Shown here in pieces: positions 1 through 12,109 of a DNA stretch of 12,109 bases. The stretch's first letter is position 1. Each line of letters begins with the position of its first letter. Below the pieces are notes generated by a model, which made no database searches, was not told where the DNA came from, and saw nothing but the letters and a program-made list of their open reading frames with translations. Source of the DNA: a virus (taxonomy: Duplodnaviria; Heunggongvirae; Uroviricota; Caudoviricetes); IMG/VR virus record IMGVR_UViG_3300019790_000026, positions 1 through 12,109 of that record; one strand, 5' to 3'. Both the position numbers and the translations under genes were made by a program.

Positions 1-264
1 TTCCTCGATCCGGTGTTGTCGTTGTCTCAGCAGTGCACTGGTCTGTTCTGCTTCGGCATAGAGCCGCGCCTGCTCCCGGTTATTGGTTTCAGTCAGAATG
101 GACAGGCTGATAAGCTGGCTGTTTTTCTTCGTCAGTTCCTGCGCTTTACTTTTCAGCGCCGCGCGCTGCGTTTCGATGGTGTGGCTGGCGCTGTTAAGCC
201 GCCACGACTGCCAGCCCAGCGCAACGAGTGCCAGCGCCACCACTACTGCCAGCGCACGCGTCAT
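1..264 (-). CDS. Rz/LysB-like i-spanin, partial (3-prime end lies beyond the left edge)
   Basis: Minus-strand ATG at 264..262 preceded by AAGGAG. Translation MTRALAVVVALALVALGWQSW... has an N-terminal transmembrane segment followed by a charged, coiled-coil-like region, as in Rz-family spanins. The start overlaps the upstream stop as ATGA. Confidence 0.6.
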   Translation of the reverse strand, partial: MTRALAVVVALALVALGWQSWRLNSASHTIETQRAALKSKAQELTKKNSQLISLSILTETNNREQARLYAEAEQTSALLRQRQHRIEE

Positions 265-458
265 AGTCCAGCTCCTTTAAGGCACCAGGCCATCTCCCGC
301 GCACGGCGGTTATCCAGCCCCTGATTAAACACACCTTTTACATAAACCCAGCGCGGCAACTGTCGGCACGCATCTGCCCAGCGCCGCTGATTGAGCAATT
401 TCACCAGTGTGGAACTACAGGCATTGCCCGTTGCTGCTTCTGCAGAGCAGACTCCAGT
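261..458 (-). pseudogene. C-terminal fragment of a GH24 (T4/P22-type) phage lysozyme, 5-prime truncated
   Basis: Minus-strand frame ending in TGA at 263..261 translates to ...LLNQRRWADACRQLPRWVYVKGVFNQGLDNRRAREMAWCLKGAGL, which resembles the conserved C-terminus of phage lysozymes. There is no start codon, and an in-frame stop sits at 459-461, so only about 65 codons remain. Confidence 0.45.
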
Positions 459-546
459 TCAGACAGGCGTTCTTCCTGCTCAGACAGAGATTTTTCGGTT
501 CGCGCGCTCAGGTTTTGCTGCTCAGTGGCGACCAGCTCCACGGCTC

Positions 547-2472
547 ATGACAGTGAAAGCAAAGCGTTTTCGCATCGGGGTGGAAGGTGCCACCACCGAC
601 GGACGCGAAATCCAGCGTGAATGGCTGGAACAGATGGCAGCCAGCTACAACCCGGCGGTGTATACCGCGCTGATTAACCTTGAGCACATCAAGTCTTATC
701 TGCCGGACAGCACCTTTAACCGCTACGGCAAGGTGACGGCGCTGTTTGCTGAGGAAATCACGGAAGGTCCGCTGGCAGGCAAGATGGCGCTGTATGCCGA
801 CGTTGAGCCAACGGAGTCCCTGGTGGAACTGGTGAAAAAACGCGACAAGTGGGGTGACTATGGGCCGCTGGATCAGATGCAGCTCACCACCGCCGCACGC
901 TACTGCCAGCTCATTATGAAGGAGCACAAAGAAGGGAAAGATTTCAAAGAGATTGACCTGCTGGCGCGCCAGTCGGAGCGCCATGCGCGGATCGGCAAGT
1001 TTAACAATGGCGGCAACGAAGCCGACTTAAACCCTAACGTCGCCAACCGCAACAAAGGCCCGCGTCGTCAGCCGGAAAAGAACGTTTTCACCGATGAACA
1101 GATTGAGAAGCTGGAAGAAATCTTCCATTCCTCCATGTTCAACTACCAGCGCCACTGGTGGGAAGCCGGAAAAACCAACCGCATCCGCAACCTGCTGAAG
1201 TCACGCCAGATCGGCGCGACCTTCTATTTTGCCCGTGAAGCCCTGATTGACGCCCTGCTAACCGGGCGTAACCAGATTTTCCTTTCCGCCAGCAAGGCAC
1301 AGGCCCACGTCTTTAAGCAGTACATCATCGACTTCGCCAAAGAAGTGGAGGTGGAGCTGAAAGGCGATCCGATAGTGCTTCCTAACGGGGCCACGCTGTA
1401 CTTCCTCGGCACCAATGCCCGCACGGCCCAGAGTTACCACGGCAACCTGTATCTGGATGAATATTTCTGGATACCGAAATTCCAAGAGCTGCGCAAAGTG
1501 GCTTCCGGTATGGCTATTCACAAAAAATGGCGACAAACCTATTTTTCCACGCCATCCAGCCTGACACACAGTGCTTATCCGTTCTGGTCCGGTGCGCTGT
1601 TCAACCGTGGGCGCAACAAAGCCGACAAGGTGGACATCGACCTGTCCCACAGCAATCTGGCCCCCGGCCTGCTGTGCACAGACGGGCAATACCGCCAGAT
1701 AGTCACCGTGGAAGATGCGGTGCGCGGCGGCTGTAACCTGTTCGACCTCGACCAGCTACGCATGGAGTACAGCCCGGACGAATACCAGAACCTGCTGATG
1801 TGCGAGTTCGTGGACGATCTCGCGTCCGTGTTCCCGCTCAGCGAGCTGCAAGCGTGCATGGTGGACAGTTGGGAAATCTGGACCGACTTTCATGCACTGG
1901 CCCTGCGCCCGTTTGGCTGGCGCGAAGTGTGGATCGGTTATGACCCGGCAAAAGGTACGCAGAACGGCGACAGTGCCGGATGCGTGGTGGTGGCACCGCC
2001 AGCCGTGCCGGGTGGTAAGTTCCGCATTCTTGAGCGTCACCAGTGGCGCGGGATGGACTTCCGCGCCCAGGCTGACGCCATCAAAAAACTGACCGAGCAG
2101 TACAACGTGACCTACATCGGCATCGACTCGACAGGTGTCGGCCACGGGGTTTACGAGAACGTGAAAGCGTTTTTTCCAGCCGTCCGGGAGTTTGTCTACA
2201 ACCCCAACGTTAAAAACGCCCTGGTACTCAAGGCCTACGACATTATCAGTCACCGTCGTCTGGAGTTTGACGCCGGACACACCGACATAGCGCAGTCATT
2301 TATGGCAATCCGTCGCGCCACCACCGCCAGCGGCAACCGCCCAACCTATGAAGCCAGCCGCAGCGAAGAAGCCAGCCATGCCGATCTGGCCTGGGCAACA
2401 ATGCACGCACTGTTTAACGAACCGCTGCAGGGCGAGTCCGCCAATACCAGCAATATTGTGGAGATTTTTTGA
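547..2472 (+). CDS. Terminase ATPase/large subunit (P2 gpP-like) with a foreign N-terminus resembling capsid scaffold/protease gpO (apparent fusion)
   Basis: From about codon 98 onward (KRDKWGD..., DFKEIDLL, SRQIGATFYFAREAL, NQIFLSASKAQAHVFK, LYFLGTNARTAQSYHGN) the ORF matches my recollection of the GpP terminase family. Residues 1-97 (KRFRIGVEGATTDGREI...INLEH...FNRYGKV) match the GPO scaffold N-terminal motifs. ATG at 547 is preferred over the tracked TTG at 391. The stop overlaps the portal start. Confidence 0.7.
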   Translation: MTVKAKRFRIGVEGATTDGREIQREWLEQMAASYNPAVYTALINLEHIKSYLPDSTFNRYGKVTALFAEEITEGPLAGKMALYADVEPTESLVELVKKRDKWGDYGPLDQMQLTTAARYCQLIMKEHKEGKDFKEIDLLARQSERHARIGKFNNGGNEADLNPNVANRNKGPRRQPEKNVFTDEQIEKLEEIFHSSMFNYQRHWWEAGKTNRIRNLLKSRQIGATFYFAREALIDALLTGRNQIFLSASKAQAHVFKQYIIDFAKEVEVELKGDPIVLPNGATLYFLGTNARTAQSYHGNLYLDEYFWIPKFQELRKVASGMAIHKKWRQTYFSTPSSLTHSAYPFWSGALFNRGRNKADKVDIDLSHSNLAPGLLCTDGQYRQIVTVEDAVRGGCNLFDLDQLRMEYSPDEYQNLLMCEFVDDLASVFPLSELQACMVDSWEIWTDFHALALRPFGWREVWIGYDPAKGTQNGDSAGCVVVAPPAVPGGKFRILERHQWRGMDFRAQADAIKKLTEQYNVTYIGIDSTGVGHGVYENVKAFFPAVREFVYNPNVKNALVLKAYDIISHRRLEFDAGHTDIAQSFMAIRRATTASGNRPTYEASRSEEASHADLAWATMHALFNEPLQGESANTSNIVEIF

Positions 2473-3497
2473 TGGGAAAGAGTAAGAAAAACCGCGCTGC
2501 GGCGACGAACCAGATCCAGCATAAAAACCAAACTTCAGCCGAAGCATTCAGCTTCGGTGATCCCGTTCCTGTTCTGGACCGCCGCGAATTACTGGACTAT
2601 GTGGAATGCGTAAAGATGGACCGCTGGTATGAGCCACCCGTAAGTTTTGACGGACTGGCGCGAACATTCCGCGCCGCCGTACACCACAGTTCACCGATTG
2701 CAGTAAAGTGCAACATTCTGACCAGCACCTACATCCCTCACCCGCTGCTCAGCCAGCAGGCGTTTTCACGTTTTGTGCAGGACTATCTGGTTTTTGGTAA
2801 CGCCTACCTGGAGAAACGCACGAACCGATTCGGTGAAGTTATCGCCCTTGAGCCTGCGCTGGCAAAATACACCCGACGCGGATTAGACCTAGATACCTAC
2901 TGGTTTGTGCAATACGGCATGACCACGCAGCCGTATCAGTTCACGAAAGGCAGCATTTTTCATCTGATGGAACCGGACATCAACCAGGAGATCTACGGCC
3001 TGCCCGGCTATCTTTCTGCCATCCCATCCGCCCTGCTCAACGAGTCCGCCACGCTGTTCCGCCGAAAGTATTACATTAACGGTAGTCATGCAGGCTTCAT
3101 CATGTACATGACCGATGCCGCGCAGAACCAGGAAGATGTGAACAACCTCCGCAATGCGATGAAAAGTGCCAAAGGCCCTGGCAACTTCCGCAACCTGTTT
3201 ATGTACTCGCCTAATGGTAAAAAAGACGGACTTCAGATTATCCCGTTGTCAGAAGTCACAGCGAAGGATGAGTTTCTGAATATCAAGAACGTGAGCCGTG
3301 ATGACATGATGGCGGCACACCGCGTGCCGCCGCAAATGATGGGAATTATGCCTAATAATGTCGGGGGGTTTGGGGATGTGGAGAAGGCTAGCAAGGTATT
3401 CGTAAGAAACGAATTGATGCCCCTGCAGAAACGATTGCAGGAACTAAATAACTGGTTGGACGAAGAAGTGCTCAATTTTTCAACCTATGAGCTTTAG
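2472..3497 (+). CDS. Portal protein (P2 gpQ-like)
   Basis: 341-aa ORF directly after the terminase gene with TGATG stop/start overlap. Size and position match P2 Q, and the sequence resembles the gpQ portal family. ATG at 2472 is preferred over the tracked TTG at 2469. Confidence 0.85.
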   Translation: MGKSKKNRAAATNQIQHKNQTSAEAFSFGDPVPVLDRRELLDYVECVKMDRWYEPPVSFDGLARTFRAAVHHSSPIAVKCNILTSTYIPHPLLSQQAFSRFVQDYLVFGNAYLEKRTNRFGEVIALEPALAKYTRRGLDLDTYWFVQYGMTTQPYQFTKGSIFHLMEPDINQEIYGLPGYLSAIPSALLNESATLFRRKYYINGSHAGFIMYMTDAAQNQEDVNNLRNAMKSAKGPGNFRNLFMYSPNGKKDGLQIIPLSEVTAKDEFLNIKNVSRDDMMAAHRVPPQMMGIMPNNVGGFGDVEKASKVFVRNELMPLQKRLQELNNWLDEEVLNFSTYEL

Positions 3498-3502
3498 TTT
3501 TA

Positions 3503-3533
3503 AAACGAAGACCATTAGGTCTTCGCTTTATTT
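3503..3533. terminator. Bidirectional intrinsic terminator shared by the convergent portal and retron RT genes
   Basis: Hairpin CGAAGACC (3506-3513), loop ATTA, GGTCTTCG (3518-3525), flanked by an A-run on the left and CTTTATTT on the right, so it reads as stem plus U-tract on both strands. The RT stop codon lies in the loop. Confidence 0.5.
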
Positions 3534-4477
3534 AAAGGGTTCTTTCCATATTTTTTTTCTAATTTGCTAATATAAGTTATTAATCTCCTATGGCTTTTTG
3601 AATCCACACTTAAAATAAATGACAACCATCCCCTAACGTGTTCTATCTCAGAAGACTTACCGCAAAATATATGATGTATCTTTGCTCTAATTTCTTTATA
3701 TTTTTCTCTACCTATCCCAACTTTCTCTTGTGAAATAACTAAACCTGTAACTTTCCTCTGACTACGAGGCCCACTAATACAAGTTTTTTTTGAGTTAATA
3801 ACCAATCCTTCACTTGGGATTATAGAAAATAAAAAATCACGTGCTTTAACAACCTTTTTCATAGACTGTGCAGATAAGGTGAGATCATCGGCATATCTCG
3901 TATATATCAAGCCCCGACTACCTGCATAACCCTGAATACGATAATCAAGTTTAGAACATATTAGATTAGCTAATTTAGGTGATGATGGAGCACCTTGTGG
4001 TAGCAGATTTTTATAACAACATATTTTTGTCAAAACTGAAGATATTAGTCGATTATAACCAAGAGAATGGAACACTCCAAAAACTTTGTTAGCAGTTAAA
4101 CTTGGGAAAAAATCCTCCAAATCAATATTCAGTATAAAGTTTGCCCCAATATGCGGGGTAGCATTATTCAAAATAGATTGGTGCTTTTCAAATCCAATAG
4201 AAAAAGGAGATGACGACAGTTTATCTAAAATGTTACGTAGAACCCATCCTTGTAAGGCTTTAAGTTCTCGAGAAGGTTGGTAAATGGTTCTCATTCTCTT
4301 CTCTGGGCCTTTCTTTTCTACAGTGTAGATCCTATAGCGAAAATCAGCTGTATAGATTAACAACCGAAGTGTTTCAACAGATATGCGAGTCGCCTTAGAC
4401 ATGTCATGCAAATTGTTCATGACAGGTAGGCCGAGATTTCTCAATCTAAAAGTGTTCAAATATTCAGCGGATTTCAT
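3515..4477 (-). CDS. ret: Retron reverse transcriptase, Ec86 / Retron-Eco1 type
   Basis: 320-aa ORF with reverse-transcriptase motifs (NIDLEDFFPS, LPQGAPSSPKLANL, YADDLTLS) and the retron-typical VTG motif (RKVTGLVIS). The translation matches my memory of the published Ec86 RT, and the gene sits immediately downstream of the msr-msd. Confidence 0.93.
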   Translation of the reverse strand: MKSAEYLNTFRLRNLGLPVMNNLHDMSKATRISVETLRLLIYTADFRYRIYTVEKKGPEKRMRTIYQPSRELKALQGWVLRNILDKLSSSPFSIGFEKHQSILNNATPHIGANFILNIDLEDFFPSLTANKVFGVFHSLGYNRLISSVLTKICCYKNLLPQGAPSSPKLANLICSKLDYRIQGYAGSRGLIYTRYADDLTLSAQSMKKVVKARDFLFSIIPSEGLVINSKKTCISGPRSQRKVTGLVISQEKVGIGREKYKEIRAKIHHIFCGKSSEIEHVRGWLSFILSVDSKSHRRLITYISKLEKKYGKNPLNKAKT

Positions 4478-4484
4478 GAAAGTT

Positions 4485-4496
4485 GCGCACCCTTAC
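4485..4496 (-). repeat. Retron a2 inverted repeat (pairs with a1 at 4641-4652)
   Basis: 12-nt exact reverse complement of 4641-4652. Confidence 0.85.
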
Positions 4497-4639
4497 GTCA
4501 GAAAAAACGGGTTTCCTGGTTGGCTCGGAGAGCATCAGGCGATGCTCTCCGTTCCAACAAGGAAAACAGACAGTAACTCAGATTCAATGCAGGATGCCGA
4601 AACAACATCCAGAGGTTGACCTTAATGATAAACCTCTCG

Positions 4640-5563
4640 CTAAGGGTGCGCATACGGAATCTTATCATAGTTAAATGTTGATTTTCTACGGTTTTCAAAA
4701 TTCATAATCTCAAGCCGCAATCGGTCAAGTGTCTTTCTATCAAAGACGCTCCTAACATAGCTAGCCCCCAAAGCAGTGACCTGATAACCATCAGTCATTT
4801 GAAGTATTTTTCGTTCATTTATTAGACGAGAAACAACGGATCTAACAATAATTTTAGATAAAACATCATCTTGCTTTATCGCTTTAAAAGCTAGTTCACA
4901 CAGTGTGCGGTAGTTGACACTATCCAGTAAATAGATACAAGGCAATAGAAACCGCTCTGCGTATAATATATTTCCAATATCTTTTGATACTTTATTTTCT
5001 TTCCTAACCTTCTTAATAGATGCCATTAATTTTTTATATAATCGTAATTTTCTGGCAACATCAATAGATGAATCACACATTTCTTTTAGTTCATTTGAAC
5101 TACAACGCAAAACAGATTTTGAATTAAACTTACGCAACAGGCGAACAGGACCATAGTTAATAAAGCTACGTTTTGATTTAAATTTTGCATCTTGAATGCA
5201 AATCAACTTTCTCCTTAAGTTTTCATTATTAGAGAACGCACCAAGCTCTGTGAAAGACCCCGGACTTTCAGGAAATAAAATTATTACATCGACAGCTTCA
5301 GCCAGAATATTTTCTAAACTTAAAAGGCTATGCTGCCCTTGACCAGCCAAAAGATCATCAAATAGATCTTCTGGATAAAATATATCAACATCACTGAACT
5401 TTGCTAAAAATTGTGATAATTGATGACGCCAAGATTGATGATTAGCAACGTCACCACCACATAGAAAAATGGTTATTTTAATATTAGCTCCTCGATAGAA
5501 GCCTTTCTTTGTGAGATGTCCTATAAGCTGTTGTTGCTGCTCATCGGTAAATTTTTTATTCAT
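4640..5563 (-). CDS. Retron effector: nucleoside 2-deoxyribosyltransferase-like (NDT) domain with a C-terminal putative DNA-binding region
   Basis: 307-aa ORF immediately upstream of msr-msd-ret on the same strand, with RBS GGGGAGA. The N-terminal region (IFLCGGD..., ILFPESPGSFTELGAF) fits the NDT/flavodoxin-like fold with the conserved Glu. Its TAG stop overlaps the a1 repeat. Confidence 0.85.
   Translation of the reverse strand: MNKKFTDEQQQQLIGHLTKKGFYRGANIKITIFLCGGDVANHQSWRHQLSQFLAKFSDVDIFYPEDLFDDLLAGQGQHSLLSLENILAEAVDVIILFPESPGSFTELGAFSNNENLRRKLICIQDAKFKSKRSFINYGPVRLLRKFNSKSVLRCSSNELKEMCDSSIDVARKLRLYKKLMASIKKVRKENKVSKDIGNILYAERFLLPCIYLLDSVNYRTLCELAFKAIKQDDVLSKIIVRSVVSRLINERKILQMTDGYQVTALGASYVRSVFDRKTLDRLRLEIMNFENRRKSTFNYDKIPYAHP
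4641..4652 (-). repeat. Retron a1 inverted repeat; the presumed priming G follows at 4640
   Basis: 12-nt exact reverse complement of 4485-4496, at the 5-prime end of msr. Confidence 0.85.
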
Positions 5564-5704
5564 AATCTCCCCGCTTTTTTTTCTACTTTATACATCAAGT
5601 TATGAATAGATCCAATCTCCATACCACATGGCGCGCGCTCGTATCCCCGCCACGCCTGCCCGCTTTATGCAGTGGTTTTCATGCACATGCATAACATGAG
5701 CAAA

Positions 5705-5730
5705 AGCCCGCCAGTTCTGGCGGATCTGAG
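5705..5730 (-). terminator. Putative intrinsic terminator (minus-strand sense)
   Basis: Perfect hairpin CCGCCAG-N3-CTGGCGG (5708-5726) followed on the minus strand by GCTTTTGC. Confidence 0.3.
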
Positions 5731-6035
5731 CAAAGACGATCCTCAATCGATCATGCGATTTCATGCAGCATAGTCATGCACTGTCAAGGAAGTGAAAATC
5801 CGTATCTGAATGGCCACTTGAAAAACGGATCATACGGGTTTACAAAGATGAATGTTCGCTGTGAACGGGAAGCGGAAGTTAACTTTCAGATAACATAATC
5901 CATATGCACGAGAACCTCTAAAATAGAATGGGACACCTAAGCGGGGTACTTACAACGATTCTTTCCATATTCACAGTTAACACTCTGTTTGGCGTATTTT
6001 TATTCAAATAGCAAACACCAATAAAAGGAGTTTCC

Positions 6036-6371
6036 ATGAACAATATTCCCCCTATACCACAGTTAGGAATTTATGTCTCAAAAATCGATCCCACCCTACG
6101 TATCACTGTAACCGATGTTGATATTGTTGATGGTGAGGATGATTCTCCTGATGATGAATTGTTTTATTTAGTCCACTGGATCGAGGGGGAAGATGAAAGT
6201 GATATGACAGCAATGGGATTTGAGCTAGACCCAGTAGAGTGGCAGGCTTTCGTTGAATCTGAGCAATTAGTGTTTGAGCGTGATCCGTACATGGATTCAA
6301 TCCCCGAAAATTCAAACTTGGCAAAGATTCGGGATTTTCTCATGAAGACTAAACAGAATGATCATTCGTAA
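6036..6371 (+). CDS. Hypothetical small, strongly acidic protein (111 aa)
   Basis: Strong RBS AAAAGGAG 6 nt upstream of ATG. Very Asp/Glu-rich (DVDIVDGEDDSPDDE, EGEDESD). AT-rich relative to the phage core. Divergent from the retron effector. Confidence 0.7.
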   Translation: MNNIPPIPQLGIYVSKIDPTLRITVTDVDIVDGEDDSPDDELFYLVHWIEGEDESDMTAMGFELDPVEWQAFVESEQLVFERDPYMDSIPENSNLAKIRDFLMKTKQNDHS

Positions 6372-6563
6372 GTGTAAGCATCCATCAGGAAAATGGTTTT
6401 GTAAGTGAATCATCAACTTTTAGAGAGTCTCAGACACTCCCACTTCTGCTTCTGACACAAAGCGGACGATCACTTATCAAAATAACCGCCCACCTTACGC
6501 CTTATTTCACTCATTGCCCAAACTAGCCCCCATCAGAATGAATCCTCCTGGGGGCAACATTTC

Positions 6564-6797
6564 TTAATGCAGCCAGCTGTCGTCCTCCCACACCTTCTGC
6601 ATAATTTTCATCACTTGTTTTCTTTCTTCATCCAGTTGCAGTCCGGTTAGTTCCACACCGTTAGAGCTACCTTTGCGAATGCGAATTACCGTTTTGGGAT
6701 ACAGGGGGCGCAGATTGCGGTAAAGCTCGGATTCAAGGGCGTCCAGGGTAGACTGGCTAATCTTCTGCTCTTTATCGATCATTATTTCAATGCGCAT
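6564..6797 (-). CDS. DinI-family protein (DNA-damage-inducible protein I-like)
   Basis: 77-aa product MRIEIMIDKEQKISQSTLDALESELYRNLRPLYP...VWEDDSWLH has the DinI length and pattern (MRIEV..., C-terminal acidic W motif). RBS GGTGA upstream. ATG at 6797 is preferred over the tracked 101-aa extension. Confidence 0.8.
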   Translation of the reverse strand: MRIEIMIDKEQKISQSTLDALESELYRNLRPLYPKTVIRIRKGSSNGVELTGLQLDEERKQVMKIMQKVWEDDSWLH

Positions 6798-6807
6798 AAA
6801 AGTCACC

Positions 6808-6996
6808 TCAGCTGATGACATCCATTGAGCGGTTGTATTCGTGGCTTCTGATTTTTGCCATGAGTTCATCAGTCAATTCAGAAACCCACTGCAGAGCCAG
6901 CCCCTTCTCTTCATCACTACACTCACTAGCCGCTACAAGCTTAAGAAAAAAATCAATGCGCTGGAGCTTCAAAGACTCCAAAAAATAGTCCTGCAT
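6808..6996 (-). CDS. Hypothetical 62-aa protein, first gene of the SOS-boxed operon (possibly the N-terminal part of a Tum-like antirepressor)
   Basis: ORF with strong RBS AGGAGG, directly downstream of the LexA-box promoter and 10 nt upstream of the DinI-like gene. Confidence 0.5.
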   Translation of the reverse strand: MQDYFLESLKLQRIDFFLKLVAASECSDEEKGLALQWVSELTDELMAKIRSHEYNRSMDVIS

Positions 6997-7036
6997 CTTT
7001 CCTCCTATGACACCAAAACAATACTGTATACATAAC

Positions 7037-7056
7037 CACTGTTTATATTTACAGTA
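7037..7056. promoter_or_regulatory. LexA (SOS) box overlapping a putative promoter for the orf62/DinI-like operon
   Basis: cACTGTttatatttACAGta is a perfect CTGT-N8-ACAG with AT-rich spacer. A second half-site (TACTGTATAC) lies at 7022-7031. A TTTACA / TATACT promoter-like pair is on the minus strand. Confidence 0.7.
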
Positions 7057-7148
7057 TATAATAATCTTACTGATGTAAAACGTTTTTTTACGTTCATCGG
7101 CCTGATATGCCTGGTATTATTAAGAGCACGAATTGTCAACCCGCGTAA

Positions 7149-8594
7149 TTAATACAGGTTCCGCCACTTATCATCTTCCTTCAGACGCTGGTTCCGATAG
7201 AAGATACGCAGGCCTGCTCCTGACGGAATACTGCCGCCGCGAAGGAGCAAATCGACTTCTTTCTCGCTGCCATCAAATCCCCTGGACTTCAGTTCATAGA
7301 CGAGCTGCTGTCGCTGATGGTCTGTAATTCGCTGTTTGTAGTCTTTACGCCGTTTCGGTTTCACCTGGCGTAACCTTGCAGCCAGTTCCCGGCGCTCTTT
7401 TTTGCTCATACTGTGCAGGTAATTGTGCAACTCCTTGTCATTCATACGGGTAATATCCGTTCTGGAGTCCCCATCAGCTGATTTGTCTTTCCCTTGTTGG
7501 TTCAAATTTTCAGCAAGGGGACAGTTATTGCCACGAGTCCAAGGGGCGCAAGCGCCCTGGTCGGCTGCCGCCTCCTGAACGTCAACGGCCTTACGAACCA
7601 TTTTCCACTTCACCGCATGAGTGCAGATCTTGCCCTCTGCAATGGGTGACCAGATGCCATAAATACGAATACCGTGATCGCCATATGCGGTCGGTTCTTC
7701 GTTGATTTCATAAGCAGTTCTGATGAGGTGATATTTGCGGGGAACCAGTACGCCGCCCTGCTTCATGATGTAGGTGGCAAAACAACCAGCATCAGCAGCA
7801 GCCAGGATTGCATCAAGACGCGGGTTATCCAGTACCGGCGCACCTGCTTTTTTGTCACCCTGTTGCCTTGCCGCCTGACCAGCCAGCAATCGCAGTTCAC
7901 GGTAAGCCTGACGCCCCGGAATGCCAAAGAAGCGGAATTGCTGAACACGATGCAGAGACGCCCAGGCATTAACGTATTCAGCGTTATCACGCAGGGATTT
8001 ACCCGTTTCCTTGCTGATCTCCCCAGCCAGACCACGCCCGTCAATGTTCTTACTGATGTATTTCGCGATATAGCTTGTTGGCGTACCTTTGCGCGGGTTT
8101 ATCAGCTCAGACTTAAAGCGTGGTCCCGTGTTATTGCCCAGCTCCTCGCGGTCTTCACGGATGGCAAACTTACGCAGTAATGCAGTGATGGCGCGGCGGT
8201 CTTTTTTACGCATGAAACACATGAGATGCCAGTGCACAGTACCGTCATGATGCGGCTCAGCTACCGCACCTGCAGCAACACGCCCGATCTCTGCGGTTGC
8301 ACTCATGACGTAATGTGGCAGTTTCTCTTTTGCCACCTCATTAATCGGTACGCATGGCAGGCAGTGAATCTGAGCCAGAAAACCATCTACCAGCGTTGAA
8401 TCTTCAGTCAGATCGGTAAGCAGCCAGATTTCTGGTGCGGTTAATAAATGAGGTTGCGCTGGGTTCAACTTGTTCCGCAGAATCTGCACATTCATGCCAG
8501 CACGTTCTGCCAGTTGCACCAGGTTGTGGCGCAATGCGAATGCACGACAGGCTTCATCAAAATGTGGATGTTTGGAAACTTGGTAATCAAACAT
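7149..8594 (-). CDS. In-frame fusion ORF: 186 CII-like N-terminus (~115 aa) joined to the C-terminal catalytic part of a gpA-type rolling-circle replication initiator
   Basis: N-terminus [24 protein letters not shown]...[26 protein letters not shown] matches my recollection of phage 186 CII. The downstream part carries the HUH-like HWHLM motif and the paired-tyrosine motif [12 protein letters not shown] typical of P2 gpA / phiX174 A proteins. ATG at 8594 with RBS AGAGG. Confidence 0.65.
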
Positions 8595-8626
8595 GGTCAA
8601 TGCCTCTGATGTATTTCAGAATCGAA

Positions 8627-8848
8627 CTAATTAAGGTTTAGATTGCATTCTGAAAGCGCATCAACGGTCATTGCTGCTATGTTGATCATCACTTTTTCGC
8701 GTTTTTTATCTTTGCGCAGTCGGTGACGGATAAGGCGTCCATCAGCCAACATGTCATTGATGGTATCGATGGATAGCCCTGTCAGCTCGCTATAGCGTTC
8801 AATAGTCACATGAGGGGTGGTAAGAGTGATTGAAATGTTAGGTCTCAT
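8627..8848 (-). CDS. Apl/Cox-like small HTH protein (first early-lytic gene: excisionase / transcription regulator)
   Basis: 73-aa ORF divergent from the CI gene and immediately upstream of the CII-like ORF, as apl is in phage 186. HTH-like segment [21 protein letters not shown]. Confidence 0.5.
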
Positions 8849-8967
8849 GATGCAACATTCCTCGTTTAATGATGATTAATCAGGACGAATACGGATCGTT
8901 TGTATTTTGTGAACACCATAAACATACGATCGCACAGTGAAATCGTCAAGATAAAAGTTCACTTGGA
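8849..8967. promoter_or_regulatory. Immunity switch region between apl-like and cI-like genes (lytic/lysogenic promoters and candidate operators)
   Basis: 119-bp divergent intergenic region containing related motifs ATACGGATCGTTTGTAT and ATACGATCGCAC. Its position matches the pR/pL switch of 186-type phages. Confidence 0.4.
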
Positions 8968-9543
8968 GTGACCATGAATTTGGAGAAAGGCGGACGAGGC
9001 GCTATAGAGCGCATGGTAGAAGCTTATGGATTCAAGACTCGACAGGCGTTGTGCGATCATTTAGGAATCTCTAAAAGTACACTCGCCACACGCTACATGC
9101 GTGACTCATTCCCAGCAGAATGGGTAATCCAGTGCGCCCTTGAAACAGGCACCTCGCTTAATTGGCTCACAACCGGGCATGGTTCAAAGCAAACTTCAGG
9201 TAATACAAATACTATGGAAGTTGCTAAATATGTATTATCTGATGGGGCCTTGTGTGAAGACGGTTTTTATATTTTCGATAGAGAATTTCTACCGTCGGCA
9301 TTCAAGAATCTTTTTGTAATCACAGATAATAATTCTGAATTTATTTGTGATAAGGAATTTGATGATATACGTGATGGTAAATGGGTAATAAGTATTGATG
9401 GCGAAATAACGATCCGTGACATTACTCGTTTACCCGGTGGAAGAATCTTCGTCGAGGGTGGAAATAGAGCCTTCGAGTGCAAGATAGAAGATGTTGAAAT
9501 AATTGGGAAAATTATAAGTTTAACAATTAAGTACGTTAGGTAA
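8968..9543 (+). CDS. cI: CI-type immunity repressor (phage 186 CI-like)
   Basis: 191 aa (186 CI is 192 aa). N-terminal HTH (TRQALCDHLGISKSTLATRYMRD) with a C-terminal oligomerisation-like domain. RBS GGAGTGA. Divergent from the apl-like gene and upstream of int. Confidence 0.8.
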   Translation: MTMNLEKGGRGAIERMVEAYGFKTRQALCDHLGISKSTLATRYMRDSFPAEWVIQCALETGTSLNWLTTGHGSKQTSGNTNTMEVAKYVLSDGALCEDGFYIFDREFLPSAFKNLFVITDNNSEFICDKEFDDIRDGKWVISIDGEITIRDITRLPGGRIFVEGGNRAFECKIEDVEIIGKIISLTIKYVR

Positions 9544-9558
9544 TACCGGGAGGAAACT

Positions 9559-9750
9559 ATGCTTGGTAAGGTATTTTTTGTGGTTTTATCATGCTCTTTG
9601 TTATTAAACCCACTAACTACCTATGCTAAAAATTATCCTTGTTCTGGGAAAAAGGGAGGTGTCTCTCACTGTACCTCCGATGGAAAGTTCGTTTGCAATG
9701 ATGGAACTATTAGTAAATCAAAAAAAATCTGTACTAAAAACTCGCGATAA
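9559..9750 (+). CDS. Small secreted Cys-rich protein (63 aa) inserted between cI and int
   Basis: RBS GGAGGAAACT-ATG. Predicted signal peptide [23 protein letters not shown], then a Lys-rich mature peptide of about 40 aa with 5 Cys. Confidence 0.55.
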
Positions 9751-9936
9751 ATTTTGCTTTTATATCTGCGCCTAATATAACAATGAGCCGCAGGCTAACC
9801 GCAAAAGTCACATACTCACATAGCAAAAAATAGCTAACTTCATTATGGCTTCAGTGAGATGTATGGTCGCAGGATTTCATACATTGACACTGGTTATACA
9901 TACAGTAAAAATGCTCTCTACTGGAGGGCATTTTTT

Positions 9937-10953
9937 ATGGCAGTACGAAAACTCACCACAGGAAAATGGCTTTGCGAATGTTACCCCGCCGGACGTAGTG
10001 GACGTCGTGTGCGTAAACAATTCGCCACCAAAGGCGAAGCTCTGGCTTTTGAGCGTCACACGATGGAAGAAACCGAAGCAAAGCCCTGGCTGGGCGAATC
10101 AGTGGATCGTCGGACATTGAAAGACGTGATTGAGCTATGGTTCAAACTACATGGTAAATCTCTGACAGCTGGGCAGCATGTCTATGACAAACTGCTGTTG
10201 ATGGTTGACGCTCTGGGCAATCCCCTTGCAACTGATCTAACCTCTAAAATGTTTGCCCACTATCGAGATAAACGCCTGACAGGTGAGATCTACTTCAGCG
10301 AGAAATGGAAGAAAGGAGCAAGCCCGGTCACCATTAACCTGGAGCAAAGCTATCTAAGTAGTGTTTTTAGCGAACTATCCCGCCTGGGCGAATGGTCGTA
10401 TCCGAACCCACTGGAGAACATGCGAAAATTCACCATCGCAGAAAAAGAGATGGCATGGCTTACCCATGAGCAGATTGTTGAACTGCTGGCTGATTGCAAA
10501 CGTCAGGACCCAATTCTGGCACTGGTAGTCAAGATATGCCTAAGCACAGGCGCACGCTGGCGAGAAGCAATAAATCTTACCCGCTCGCAAGTGACCAAAT
10601 ACCGAATTACCTTTGTAAGAACGAAGGGGAAGAAAAACAGAAGCATCCCTATCAGTAAAGAGCTTTACGAAGAGATCATGGCGCTTGATGGGTTCAATTT
10701 CTTTACAGACTGCTATTTTCAATTTTTATCCGTGATGGAAAAAACGTCTATCGTGCTCCCTCGCGGTCAACTGACACACGTTCTGCGCCATACGTTTGCG
10801 GCGCACTTCATGATGTCGGGTGGAAATATCCTTGCTTTGCAAAAAATCCTCGGACATCACGATATAAAAATGACTATGCGCTATGCCCATTTAGCACCCG
10901 ATCATCTTGAGACGGCTCTGAGATTCAACCCCCTCGCAACGCTAGAAGTGTGA
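9937..10953 (+). CDS. int: Tyrosine integrase (P2/186 Int family)
   Basis: 338 aa. Catalytic residues in context: ...STGARWREA..., ...HVLRHTFA..., ...MRYAHL.... RBS GGAGGG. ATG at 9937 is preferred over the tracked start at 9859. Confidence 0.9.
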   Translation: MAVRKLTTGKWLCECYPAGRSGRRVRKQFATKGEALAFERHTMEETEAKPWLGESVDRRTLKDVIELWFKLHGKSLTAGQHVYDKLLLMVDALGNPLATDLTSKMFAHYRDKRLTGEIYFSEKWKKGASPVTINLEQSYLSSVFSELSRLGEWSYPNPLENMRKFTIAEKEMAWLTHEQIVELLADCKRQDPILALVVKICLSTGARWREAINLTRSQVTKYRITFVRTKGKKNRSIPISKELYEEIMALDGFNFFTDCYFQFLSVMEKTSIVLPRGQLTHVLRHTFAAHFMMSGGNILALQKILGHHDIKMTMRYAHLAPDHLETALRFNPLATLEV

Positions 10954-11061
10954 TCTACTGGTGCAAAAATAACATCATCCCCCACTAGCTGAGTTAATTG
11001 CGTCAGAGTAAACTTTTATCAGTATATAAGTTCACTTTTATTCAATATATTAAGAGATTAC

Positions 11062-11394
11062 ATGGCTATCATTACCGTAAAAAAACATACTGTCAAAAAA
11101 GCATTATCGATGGGATTTGAAAAAGTACTTGACGATCGTGGTTATGATTCTGGGGCGTACTACGTTAAAGATGGCAAAAAGTGGATTTTTGATATTGTTG
11201 CGCTTAAGCAAAAACAAGGAGCAACCTCAGATGATGAGTTAAAAATCCTTGGGTATGATGTTGATACATATAATCTTGTAAAAAATGAATCTAATGAACT
11301 GGCTGAACTTTATCAAGATATTGCAGTTGAAGATGGTGAGCCAATGTATCTAGAGGGTGGCGTGTACTTATATCCTGATGGTTCTATCCGTTAG
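11062..11394 (+). CDS. Hypothetical protein (110 aa), AT-rich, just downstream of int
   Basis: ORF with AT-rich promoter-like upstream region. No family recognised. Composition contrasts with the GC-rich sequence that follows it. Confidence 0.5.
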   Translation: MAIITVKKHTVKKALSMGFEKVLDDRGYDSGAYYVKDGKKWIFDIVALKQKQGATSDDELKILGYDVDTYNLVKNESNELAELYQDIAVEDGEPMYLEGGVYLYPDGSIR

Positions 11395-11528
11395 CATGCA
11401 AATTGGCAGCACAACCGGGTTGTTCCAAATGGCGACAAAGTGGCGGCAGCGGTTGGCATTACCCCGTAATAACCACCACTGACCACCAACCCAACTTATT
11501 GTTTTTACTATAACTTATTGTTTTCATT

Positions 11529-11594
11529 AACCCGTTTACATAAATGGGTTTTTTGTTATCTAAAACTTATCTACTACCCTGCAACCCTCTCAAC
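11529..11594. repeat. Inverted repeat copy A (66 bp, perfect reverse complement of 12044-12109)
   Basis: Direct comparison: 11529-11594 equals the reverse complement of 12044-12109 at every position. Confidence 0.95.
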
Positions 11595-12074
11595 CATCCT
11601 CAAAATCTCCTCGCGCGATAGCGGCTTACGGTCGGTGACAAAATGCAGCGTCATCCCCTCAATAAACGCATCAAGCGCGCGGGCGGTTCCGGGTTCAAAC
11701 CATTGTTCGAGCGTTTGCTGACTGCGCTGCATCCAGTTTTGCATTACCGTTTTTAATAGCGGTTTTCGGCTAGCCAGCGCGTAGAGCTGGTACATCAGCT
11801 CCATGTTATCCGGCGTTGCAACCTGTGAGCTGTAGATCATATCGGTGATAGCCTGGCATGCGCCCGGAGCATCACTAACATCGCTAAAAAATGCCTGATA
11901 TTGCCGGGACATGATCTCAGTAAAACTGCTGAACGCCTCCAGTAACAACTCATCAATTCCTGAAAAATAGTAGGTCATCGATCCCAACGGTACCCCGGCA
12001 AGGGTAGCAATTTTGCGGTGCGTAACAGCATGTATTCCGTAAAGTTGAGAGGGTTGCAGGGTAGTAGATAAGTT
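11574..12074 (-). pseudogene. TetR-family transcriptional regulator, apparently 5-prime truncated by the inverted repeat
   Basis: The minus-strand frame is open from 12074 to the TAG at 11576..11574. It encodes a TetR-type HTH ([27 protein letters not shown]) and a ligand-binding-like C-terminal domain. There is no ATG upstream of the HTH (only a TTG at 11987, inside the HTH). The first codons and the last codons plus stop lie inside the two inverted-repeat copies. Confidence 0.65.
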
Positions 12075-12109
12075 TTAGATAACAAAAAACCCATTTATGT
12101 AAACGGGTT
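12044..12109. repeat. Inverted repeat copy B (66 bp, cut by the window edge, so it may be longer)
   Basis: Perfect reverse complement of 11529-11594. The window ends inside or at the end of the repeat. Confidence 0.95.

Follow-up and report, generated by a model that had tools for sequence, protein, structure and literature searches.

In the temperate phage 186, the immunity repressor gene cI and the integrase gene int overlap by 1 nucleotide (nt), and in phage P2 the repressor gene C is separated from int by a 115-nt gap that holds no gene. In Vibrio cholerae phage K139, a P2-related temperate phage, the gene glo is located between cI and int. The order in K139-family phages is cI, orf2, glo, int, and the corresponding records read 'orf2; involved in phage exclusion' and 'Glo; periplasmic protein; involved in phage exclusion'. 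The cI-int interval has been described as a defence hotspot in Vibrio P2-related phages (Rousset et al. 2022, PMC9122126), and according to a survey from 2026, the stretch from integrase to primase accounts for 8% of P2-encoded defence systems (PMC13586616). Here, we analysed a stretch of DNA of 12,109 nt (IMG/VR record IMGVR_UViG_3300019790_000026, positions 1 to 12,109; hereafter the window), which is the defective 186-like prophage of Escherichia coli B/BL21. Between cI (8974-9543) and int (9937-10953), the window carries a small open reading frame (ORF; 9559-9750), here referred to as the ydcA-like gene; all three genes are on the plus strand. As neither 186 nor P2 has a gene between repressor and int, and neither carries a ydcA-like gene elsewhere, it is extra relative to the canonical arrangement, as a first-pass annotation of the DNA had stated. 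Our favoured explanation, to which we assign a probability of about 0.45, is that the ydcA-like gene is a lysogenic-conversion gene that acts at the envelope, its exported peptide binding a component of the host envelope.

The gene product has a chromosomal counterpart. In E. coli K-12-type chromosomes, ydcA encodes a protein of 57 amino acids (aa; PF27300, PRK10040/NF007462) with the same layout, namely a signal peptide followed by a single domain with four Cys residues (PCSG.KGG.SHC). The two proteins are 57% identical overall, and RefSeq names both 'YdcA family protein'. They can nevertheless be told apart, as the window protein matched the model NF007463, but not NF007462 (68 bits, cutoff 118). 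Their settings differ as well: chromosomal ydcA stands alone between cybB and trg, whereas the window gene is prophage-borne and follows cI. In E. coli W, deletion of chromosomal ydcA resulted in sensitivity to 3-hydroxypropionate; the same study reports ydcA to be acid-induced via YdcI and describes YdcA as a protein of unknown function (PMC7642389). A gene named 'ydcA' on plasmid pS88 is an unrelated methylase gene that merely shares the name.

We consider it practically certain that the ORF at 9559-9750, which the first-pass annotation had placed at exactly these coordinates, is a genuine gene. It runs from an ATG start to a TAA stop, encodes a 63-aa precursor and begins 15 nt after the stop of cI. 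Its Shine-Dalgarno sequence GGGAGG (9548-9553, plus strand) is separated from the cI stop by 4 nt and from the ATG by 5 nt. The protein scored 116.1 bits against the NCBIfam equivalog model NF007463 (PRK10040.1-2; cutoff 93) over residues 5-63, and 117 bits against PHROG 6000, a family of unknown function. The Pfam family PF27300 'YdcA' is carried by homologues of the ORF and by called genes in related loci; our local copy of Pfam gave no match for the ORF, since the PF27300 model is newer than this copy. In RefSeq, the entry WP_001321204.1 bears the name 'YdcA family protein' or 'hypothetical protein'. Existing catalogues already list the product of the ydcA-like gene as an uncharacterised member of this family. 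An exhaustive hidden Markov model search (E ≤ 1e-3) yielded 445 cluster representatives of the family at 50% identity. Some of them possess two or three tandem domains, and copies of the family are carried by plasmids and chromosomes as well as by phages. Tandem domains are present, for example, in P0079, P0082 and P0090. Two other labels met during these searches were discarded. The UniRef name 'Conjugal transfer protein', given to an identical sequence, could not be traced to any evidence, and the plasmid copies are not located beside transfer genes. A match to PBCV_basic_adap (E 0.0033, below cutoff) covers only the C-terminal extension of 105-aa relatives and not the window protein.

Strong purifying selection acts on the amino-acid sequence of the ORF. 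Between E. coli alleles with 3-7% DNA divergence, the changes are nearly all synonymous, with dN/dS values of 0.04-0.14 for the entire ORF and of 0-0.13 for the part encoding the mature peptide. Between genera, synonymous sites are saturated while the mature peptide is still about 90% identical. Pairwise comparison among prophages of Escherichia, Klebsiella, Hafnia, Yersinia and Haemophilus gave identities of 71-95% for the mature domain (74-95% against the window allele), of 33-90% for CI (35-70% against the window allele) and of 49-98% for Int. The mature domain is therefore conserved far above the level of cI or int. The least conserved part of the protein is the signal-peptide segment, with identities of 17-50% in the same set. 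Such a contrast between a variable leader and a tightly constrained remainder is typical of proteins in which a functional domain is exported and its signal peptide cleaved off.

Classical rules for signal peptides, applied to 47 family members, gave a consistent picture. For the window protein, they predict a Sec/SPase I signal peptide at residues 1-23 (9559-9627, plus strand) with cleavage at TYA|KN (A23|K24). It consists of the n-region MLGK (charge +1) and an uncharged core of 12 residues, with T at -3 and A at -1. Across the family, A occupies position -1 in 47 of 47 members, the uncharged core spans 11-21 residues and the n-region is positive or neutral in every case, and nearly all members have a small residue at -3. 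It is thus very probable, judging from these sequence features, that the protein is exported. A reading as a lipoprotein (SPase II) was rejected: the sole lipobox candidate, VLS-C12, has L at -2 and lies only 7 residues after K4, and Cys12 is too near the N-terminus and is not conserved in homologues.

The predicted mature peptide (9628-9747, plus strand) comprises 40 aa and contains four Cys residues that are invariant or near-invariant in the family alignments, in addition to 8 Lys and 1 Arg. It has a net charge of +7, a mass of 4.26 kDa and a pI of 9.6, which agrees with the earlier description of a signal peptide followed by a Cys/Lys-rich mature peptide. The window protein displays the family motif PCSGKKGG[VI]SHC ... 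F[VI]CNDG..S.SK..C, in which four Cys are set in a protein of about 55-65 aa. Residues P27, C38, F44, C46, G49, S52, S54, K55 and C58 are invariant across 43 sequences, and C28 is near-invariant. The structure prediction that had been recommended was carried out with AlphaFold2 (AF2) and an alignment of 43 sequences. The resulting model has a mean pLDDT of 78.8, rising to about 90 over residues 31-50, and places a leader helix at residues 3-15 and a core beta-hairpin at residues 35-38 and 44-46.

The only meaningful match of the family profile among all sequences of the Protein Data Bank was Dis2 of Legionella pneumophila (Lpg0823; 7MUC, 7MUD). Dis2 is a periplasmic component of the Dot/Icm cap beside the outer membrane, where it contacts DotC, DotD and DotK (PMC8486379, PMC12716638). 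The same studies report two similar lobes that are pinned by five disulfides, no structural neighbours, and subtle effects only upon loss of the protein; Dis2 is described there as species-specific, without homologues outside the Legionellales (PMC8486379, PMC12716638). In our searches, the full-length profile found Dis2 with an E-value of 4.7e-4 (hmmsearch) and the profile of the mature domain only with E-values of 0.02-0.04. In Foldseek, Dis2 also ranked first for the AF2 model (probability 0.99, E 0.065, with 39% identity across 38 columns), and hhalign gave a probability of 70%. When the mature peptide was compared by BLASTP with the Dis2 relative P0228, both lobes aligned, with pairwise E-values of 3e-5 and 2e-4; P0228 also bears PF27300 in precomputed Pfam assignments. 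The motif C.S.K.GG[IV]..C....G..VCN[ND]G..S is common to the window protein and both Dis2 lobes. These comparisons make homology between YdcA-like proteins and Dis2 likely, with marginal statistical support. The mature-only profile also matched LDL-receptor class A domains (E 0.006-0.04), where only the cysteine spacing C..F.C..G......C is shared, and we judged this to be a pattern coincidence. The architectures of the likely relatives differ: Dis2 consists of two tandem lobes and belongs to a type IVB secretion context, whereas the window protein is a single domain encoded among prophage genes only. Dis2 (7MUC chain AN; P0228, P0229) looks like a YdcA-type domain duplicated in tandem. If this kinship holds, a 'species-specific' Dot/Icm component would be built from a common proteobacterial periplasmic domain.

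The position of the ydcA-like gene behind cI is a stable trait. The first-pass annotation had taken the repressor setting to be that of P2 C, which did not hold: the product of 8974-9543 is a 186-type CI (Pfam Phage_CI_repr, E 3e-33; Phage_CI_C, E 9e-27; RefSeq 'phage repressor protein CI'; stop codon 9541-9543). The suggested survey of homologous prophages had a positive outcome. Intact E. coli prophages at the same rcdA site and a prophage of Yersinia enterocolitica exhibit the order cI, ydcA-like, int, and other prophages of E. coli, Klebsiella and Hafnia have one cargo gene between the ydcA-like gene and int. This cargo gene encodes either a KAP NTPase (PADLOC candidate PDC-S20) or an uncharacterised protein of 347 aa. 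According to the boundaries of BLASTN blocks, the variable cargo slot corresponds to 9743-9856 (plus strand) and is empty in the window; related loci with this slot include L005, L007 and L014. Because the variable slot begins after the ydcA-like gene, cI and the ydcA-like gene form the conserved unit, 3' of which cargo is swapped. The gene is thus extra, as had been claimed. Far from being a one-off insertion, however, it is stably linked to cI in an entire prophage lineage and belongs to the catalogued YdcA family.

The same coupling extends to more distant phages. The Haemophilus phages HP2 and S2 possess an unannotated 60-aa homologue (L002 2486-2668, minus strand) in their leftward lysogenic operon. 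Its ATG overlaps the stop of a 186-type cI, its mature domain is 74% identical to that of the window protein, and an exported 254-aa protein, orf1(S), is encoded between it and int. A survey of IMG/VR covered 159 loci with 37 distinct YdcA-like proteins. All Enterobacterial, Pasteurellaceae and Yersinia-type variants are located 3' of a 186-type cI on the same strand and directly adjoin it, save two Yersinia-type variants. Acinetobacter and Moraxella-type variants occur in other phage contexts, for example among the late genes of Mcat phages. The ORF itself is present in 678 of 5426 complete E. coli genomes (~12%) and in at least 534 IMG/VR contigs. On a Citrobacter plasmid (NZ_CP053574.1; L023 4926-5327), a protein of 133 aa combines an N-terminal YdcA domain with a long basic tail, and its gene lies inside a type VI secretion cluster, directly after tssE. 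In E. coli strain a7 (L027, NZ_CP122496.1), ISKpn26, an element of the IS5 family, interrupts the ydcA-like gene in its 5' part, which implies that the gene is dispensable for carriage of the prophage.

In 186, the lysogenic operon is driven by pL and by the CII-activated pE, as stated in the phage record. A scan between cI and the ydcA-like ORF gave no terminator-like site. With the 15-nt spacing, a strong ribosome-binding site of its own and no terminator found between the genes, co-expression of the ydcA-like gene with CI is to be expected, and we regard co-transcription with cI as likely. The ydcA-like gene is probably expressed whenever the prophage repressor is.

Coupling of the transcript to int appears less direct. 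Upstream of int, a consensus scan gave a sigma-70-like promoter match, TTGACA-17-AAAAAT (9884-9912, plus strand; 10/12 positions), which is kept in the related loci L005, L006, L007, L011, L014 and L019. It is followed by a hairpin at 9907-9935 (plus strand; RNAfold -14.5 kcal/mol) with a GC stem (9913-9919/9923-9929) and a T6 run, which resembles a terminator or a translational occluder; it was not listed by the consensus terminator scan. The int Shine-Dalgarno sequence GGAGGG (9923-9928) is located inside the 3' arm, and the hairpin ends 1 nt before the int ATG (9937). Relatives form stems of the same shape with differing sequences (GCCCTCA/TGAGGGC, GTCCTCA/TGAGGAC, GCTCTCC/GGAGGGC), and GTCCTCA/TGAGGAC represents one compensatory change (C>T/G>A). 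The int leader is conserved over 9863-9939; within it, the palindrome ATGTATG..CATACAT is replaced by ATGTTTAA..TTAAACAT in relatives. This arrangement suggests that int is uncoupled from the cI transcript and has a regulated promoter of its own. Read-through from cI and the ydcA-like gene would form the hairpin and thereby either terminate transcription or occlude the int ribosome-binding site, while transcripts from the int-proximal promoter would start inside the hairpin and leave this site free. With promoter and hairpin placed before int, the ydcA-like gene may be the last gene of the cI (maintenance) transcript. The term 'cI-int operon', used in the first-pass annotation, may overstate continuity to int.

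How could such a gene serve the lysogen? We propose that the 63-aa precursor would be exported by the Sec pathway and cut after TYA23, and that the strongly cationic 40-aa mature peptide would adopt a small beta-hairpin fold in the periplasm, held by two disulfides. As a probable product of the same lysogenic promoters as CI (pL and pE in 186), it would be supplied continuously in lysogens. The mature peptide would then bind to a conserved part of the host envelope in the vicinity of the outer membrane, just as the Dis2 lobes, its likely relatives, do. The lysogen might gain envelope robustness, at which the ydcA phenotype hints, or exclusion of incoming DNA, at which the shared slot and Glo hint, or both. 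As the mature domain hardly varies from Haemophilus to Escherichia, whether the copy is on a phage, a plasmid or a chromosome, a host target is likelier than a fast-evolving phage protein. That this target is a component of the host envelope would, judged by these conservation patterns, be roughly an even bet.

A bolder form of this proposal, which we regard as speculative and quite unlikely, would define YdcA-like mini-proteins as a widespread module that binds outer-membrane complexes. They would be the single-lobe form of Dis2, co-expressed with the repressor by temperate phages from Haemophilus to E. coli in order to occupy or alter a conserved envelope machine, either blocking competing DNA (phage injection or conjugation) or hardening the envelope of the lysogen. 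If so, these proteins would form a new family of periplasmic factors for lysogenic conversion or exclusion in Gram-negative bacteria, and would be the first relatives of Dis2 outside the Legionellales.

Several observations weigh against an envelope-acting lysogenic-conversion gene. Literature searches by name, accession, family identifier and peptide string gave no functional study of the ydcA-like gene, and its product matched no defence model in PADLOC-DB (E ≤ 0.001). The call for export rests on simple rules. Some close relatives do without the gene; in phage vB_EcoM-813R9, the interval is taken up by the defence gene PD-Lambda-1. A search for a conserved downstream partner gene that might hint at the target found none, the sole exception being the Moraxella copies, which share a membrane-anchored protein downstream. 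On present evidence, the ydcA-like gene is an ordinary, catalogued and uncharacterised prophage accessory gene, for which an envelope-acting role in lysogenic conversion or exclusion is plausible.

A dedicated role in superinfection exclusion would place the periplasmic peptide in contact with incoming tail or ejection proteins, or with the receptor on which related phages depend, so that DNA entry is blocked in the manner of Glo or Sie2009/Ltp. Small exported exclusion factors of the lipoprotein type that act at the envelope include T5 Llp, phi80/N15 Cor and Streptococcus thermophilus Ltp. Among Gram-positive systems, the exclusion protein Sie2009 is encoded between int and the repressor gene. 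The same holds for Ltp (PMC3952083). The window protein differs from the Llp/Cor/Ltp-type lipoproteins in that it has no usable lipobox and its predicted cleavage is of the SPase I type. An exclusion function is suggested by the slot, which is the same as that of glo, annotated as encoding a periplasmic exclusion protein, and which belongs to an interval known as a defence hotspot in Vibrio P2-related phages (PMC9122126); in addition, the adjacent slot in relatives holds defence-type genes (PDC-S20 KAP NTPase, PD-Lambda-1). However, the window gene is only a positional analogue of glo. Glo has 137 aa, lacks the four-Cys domain and owes its assigned role to experiments in Vibrio, and BLASTP gave no meaningful similarity between the two proteins (E 0.18, 7/30 identities). 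A match in PADLOC is missing as well, and the extreme conservation over distant hosts and contexts is unlike that of arms-race proteins; in this region, it is the neighbouring cargo that varies, while the ydcA-like gene is conserved. We therefore consider dedicated exclusion rather unlikely.

Net charge and Cys content also bring to mind a defensin-like composition, and a cationic, disulfide-stabilised peptide of 4 kDa might be released to harm neighbouring non-lysogens in competition. This is highly improbable, as the precursor bears a Sec-type signal only, no gene for outer-membrane export, processing or immunity lies nearby, chromosomal paralogues present in single copy, for example E. coli ydcA, are solitary genes, and no bacteriocin family was matched in Pfam or NCBIfam. 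We give very little credence to a role in cis, in which translation of the ORF or its RNA would tune expression reaching int or keep the cI message stable, with no need for the peptide as such. The tight packing behind cI, up to the overlap of start and stop codon in HP2, and the location just upstream of the structured and conserved int leader would fit such a role, but selection acts on the amino acids, as seen from the dN/dS values and the saturated synonymous sites, and the same peptide is conserved where neither cI nor int is present. Finally, the ORF might be spurious or decaying, since its host prophage in E. coli B is defective, with cII fused to a truncated A, and the gene carries an IS5-family insertion in one E. 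coli strain. This explanation is effectively refuted: many intact prophages carry the ORF whole and with the same sequence, its product scores above the cutoff of a curated family model, and purifying selection on it is strong.

The consistent coupling to cI over P2/186-like prophages of several genera and the unannotated copy in HP2 and S2 are, in contrast to the catalogued family itself, new; the probable kinship with Dis2 and the probable promoter-plus-hairpin arrangement before int, both read from sequence, are likewise new. The ydcA-like gene is carried by about one in eight complete E. coli genomes, including BL21 and REL606. With its fixed place directly after cI in P2/186-like prophages from several genera, it provides a genetic handle on YdcA-type function.

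Bases 8600-11100 of the window are 100% identical to the E. coli B-lineage strains BL21(DE3), REL606 and C41/C43 and to several others, and the counterpart in BL21(DE3) is a P2/186-like prophage next to rcdA. The prophage is defective, because a deletion scar fuses CII to truncated replication protein A: the product of the ORF at 7149-8600 (minus strand) starts with the N-terminus of CII (CP76) and continues into the C-terminal part of protein A, and RefSeq treats both pieces as pseudogenes. A link of the E. coli B prophage to P2 Hy dis was considered and rejected, as the repressor of the latter is of the P2 C type, unlike the 186-type cI of the window; the P2 Hy dis repressor is given as 43-63% identical to the P2 and WPhi repressors (PMC1904268).

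The lytic operon, divergent from cI, begins with an Apl/Cox-like excisionase-repressor gene (8627-8848, minus strand; PHROG 575 'Cox-like excisionase and repressor', E 6e-31), whose product, WP_001247707.1, is the same protein in intact relatives. In the switch region, a consensus scan gave a pR-like promoter match, TTGACG-17-TATGTT (8921-8949, minus strand; 9/12 positions), which is a pattern match only; pR of 186 faces pL, and the match occupies the corresponding position. The tyrosine integrase encoded by int (Pfam Int_N and Phage_integrase) shares 55.7% identity with 186 Int and 99.4% with its counterpart in phage vB_EcoM-813R9. The window also contains the already well-known retron Ec86 in the P2 A-Q hotspot, with a type II-A reverse transcriptase (3515-4477, minus strand) and an NDT-like effector (4640-5563, minus strand). 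A scan of 8600-11600 against Rfam returned no RNA family. Between int and rcdA at the prophage end, an ORF of 110 aa (11062-11394, plus strand) has a GC content of 36% and no family match. In other prophages at this site, the slot between int and the prophage end has a different content: in Klebsiella, SocA_Panacea together with an ORF of 249 aa, and in E. coli ETEC4089, an ORF of 89 aa.
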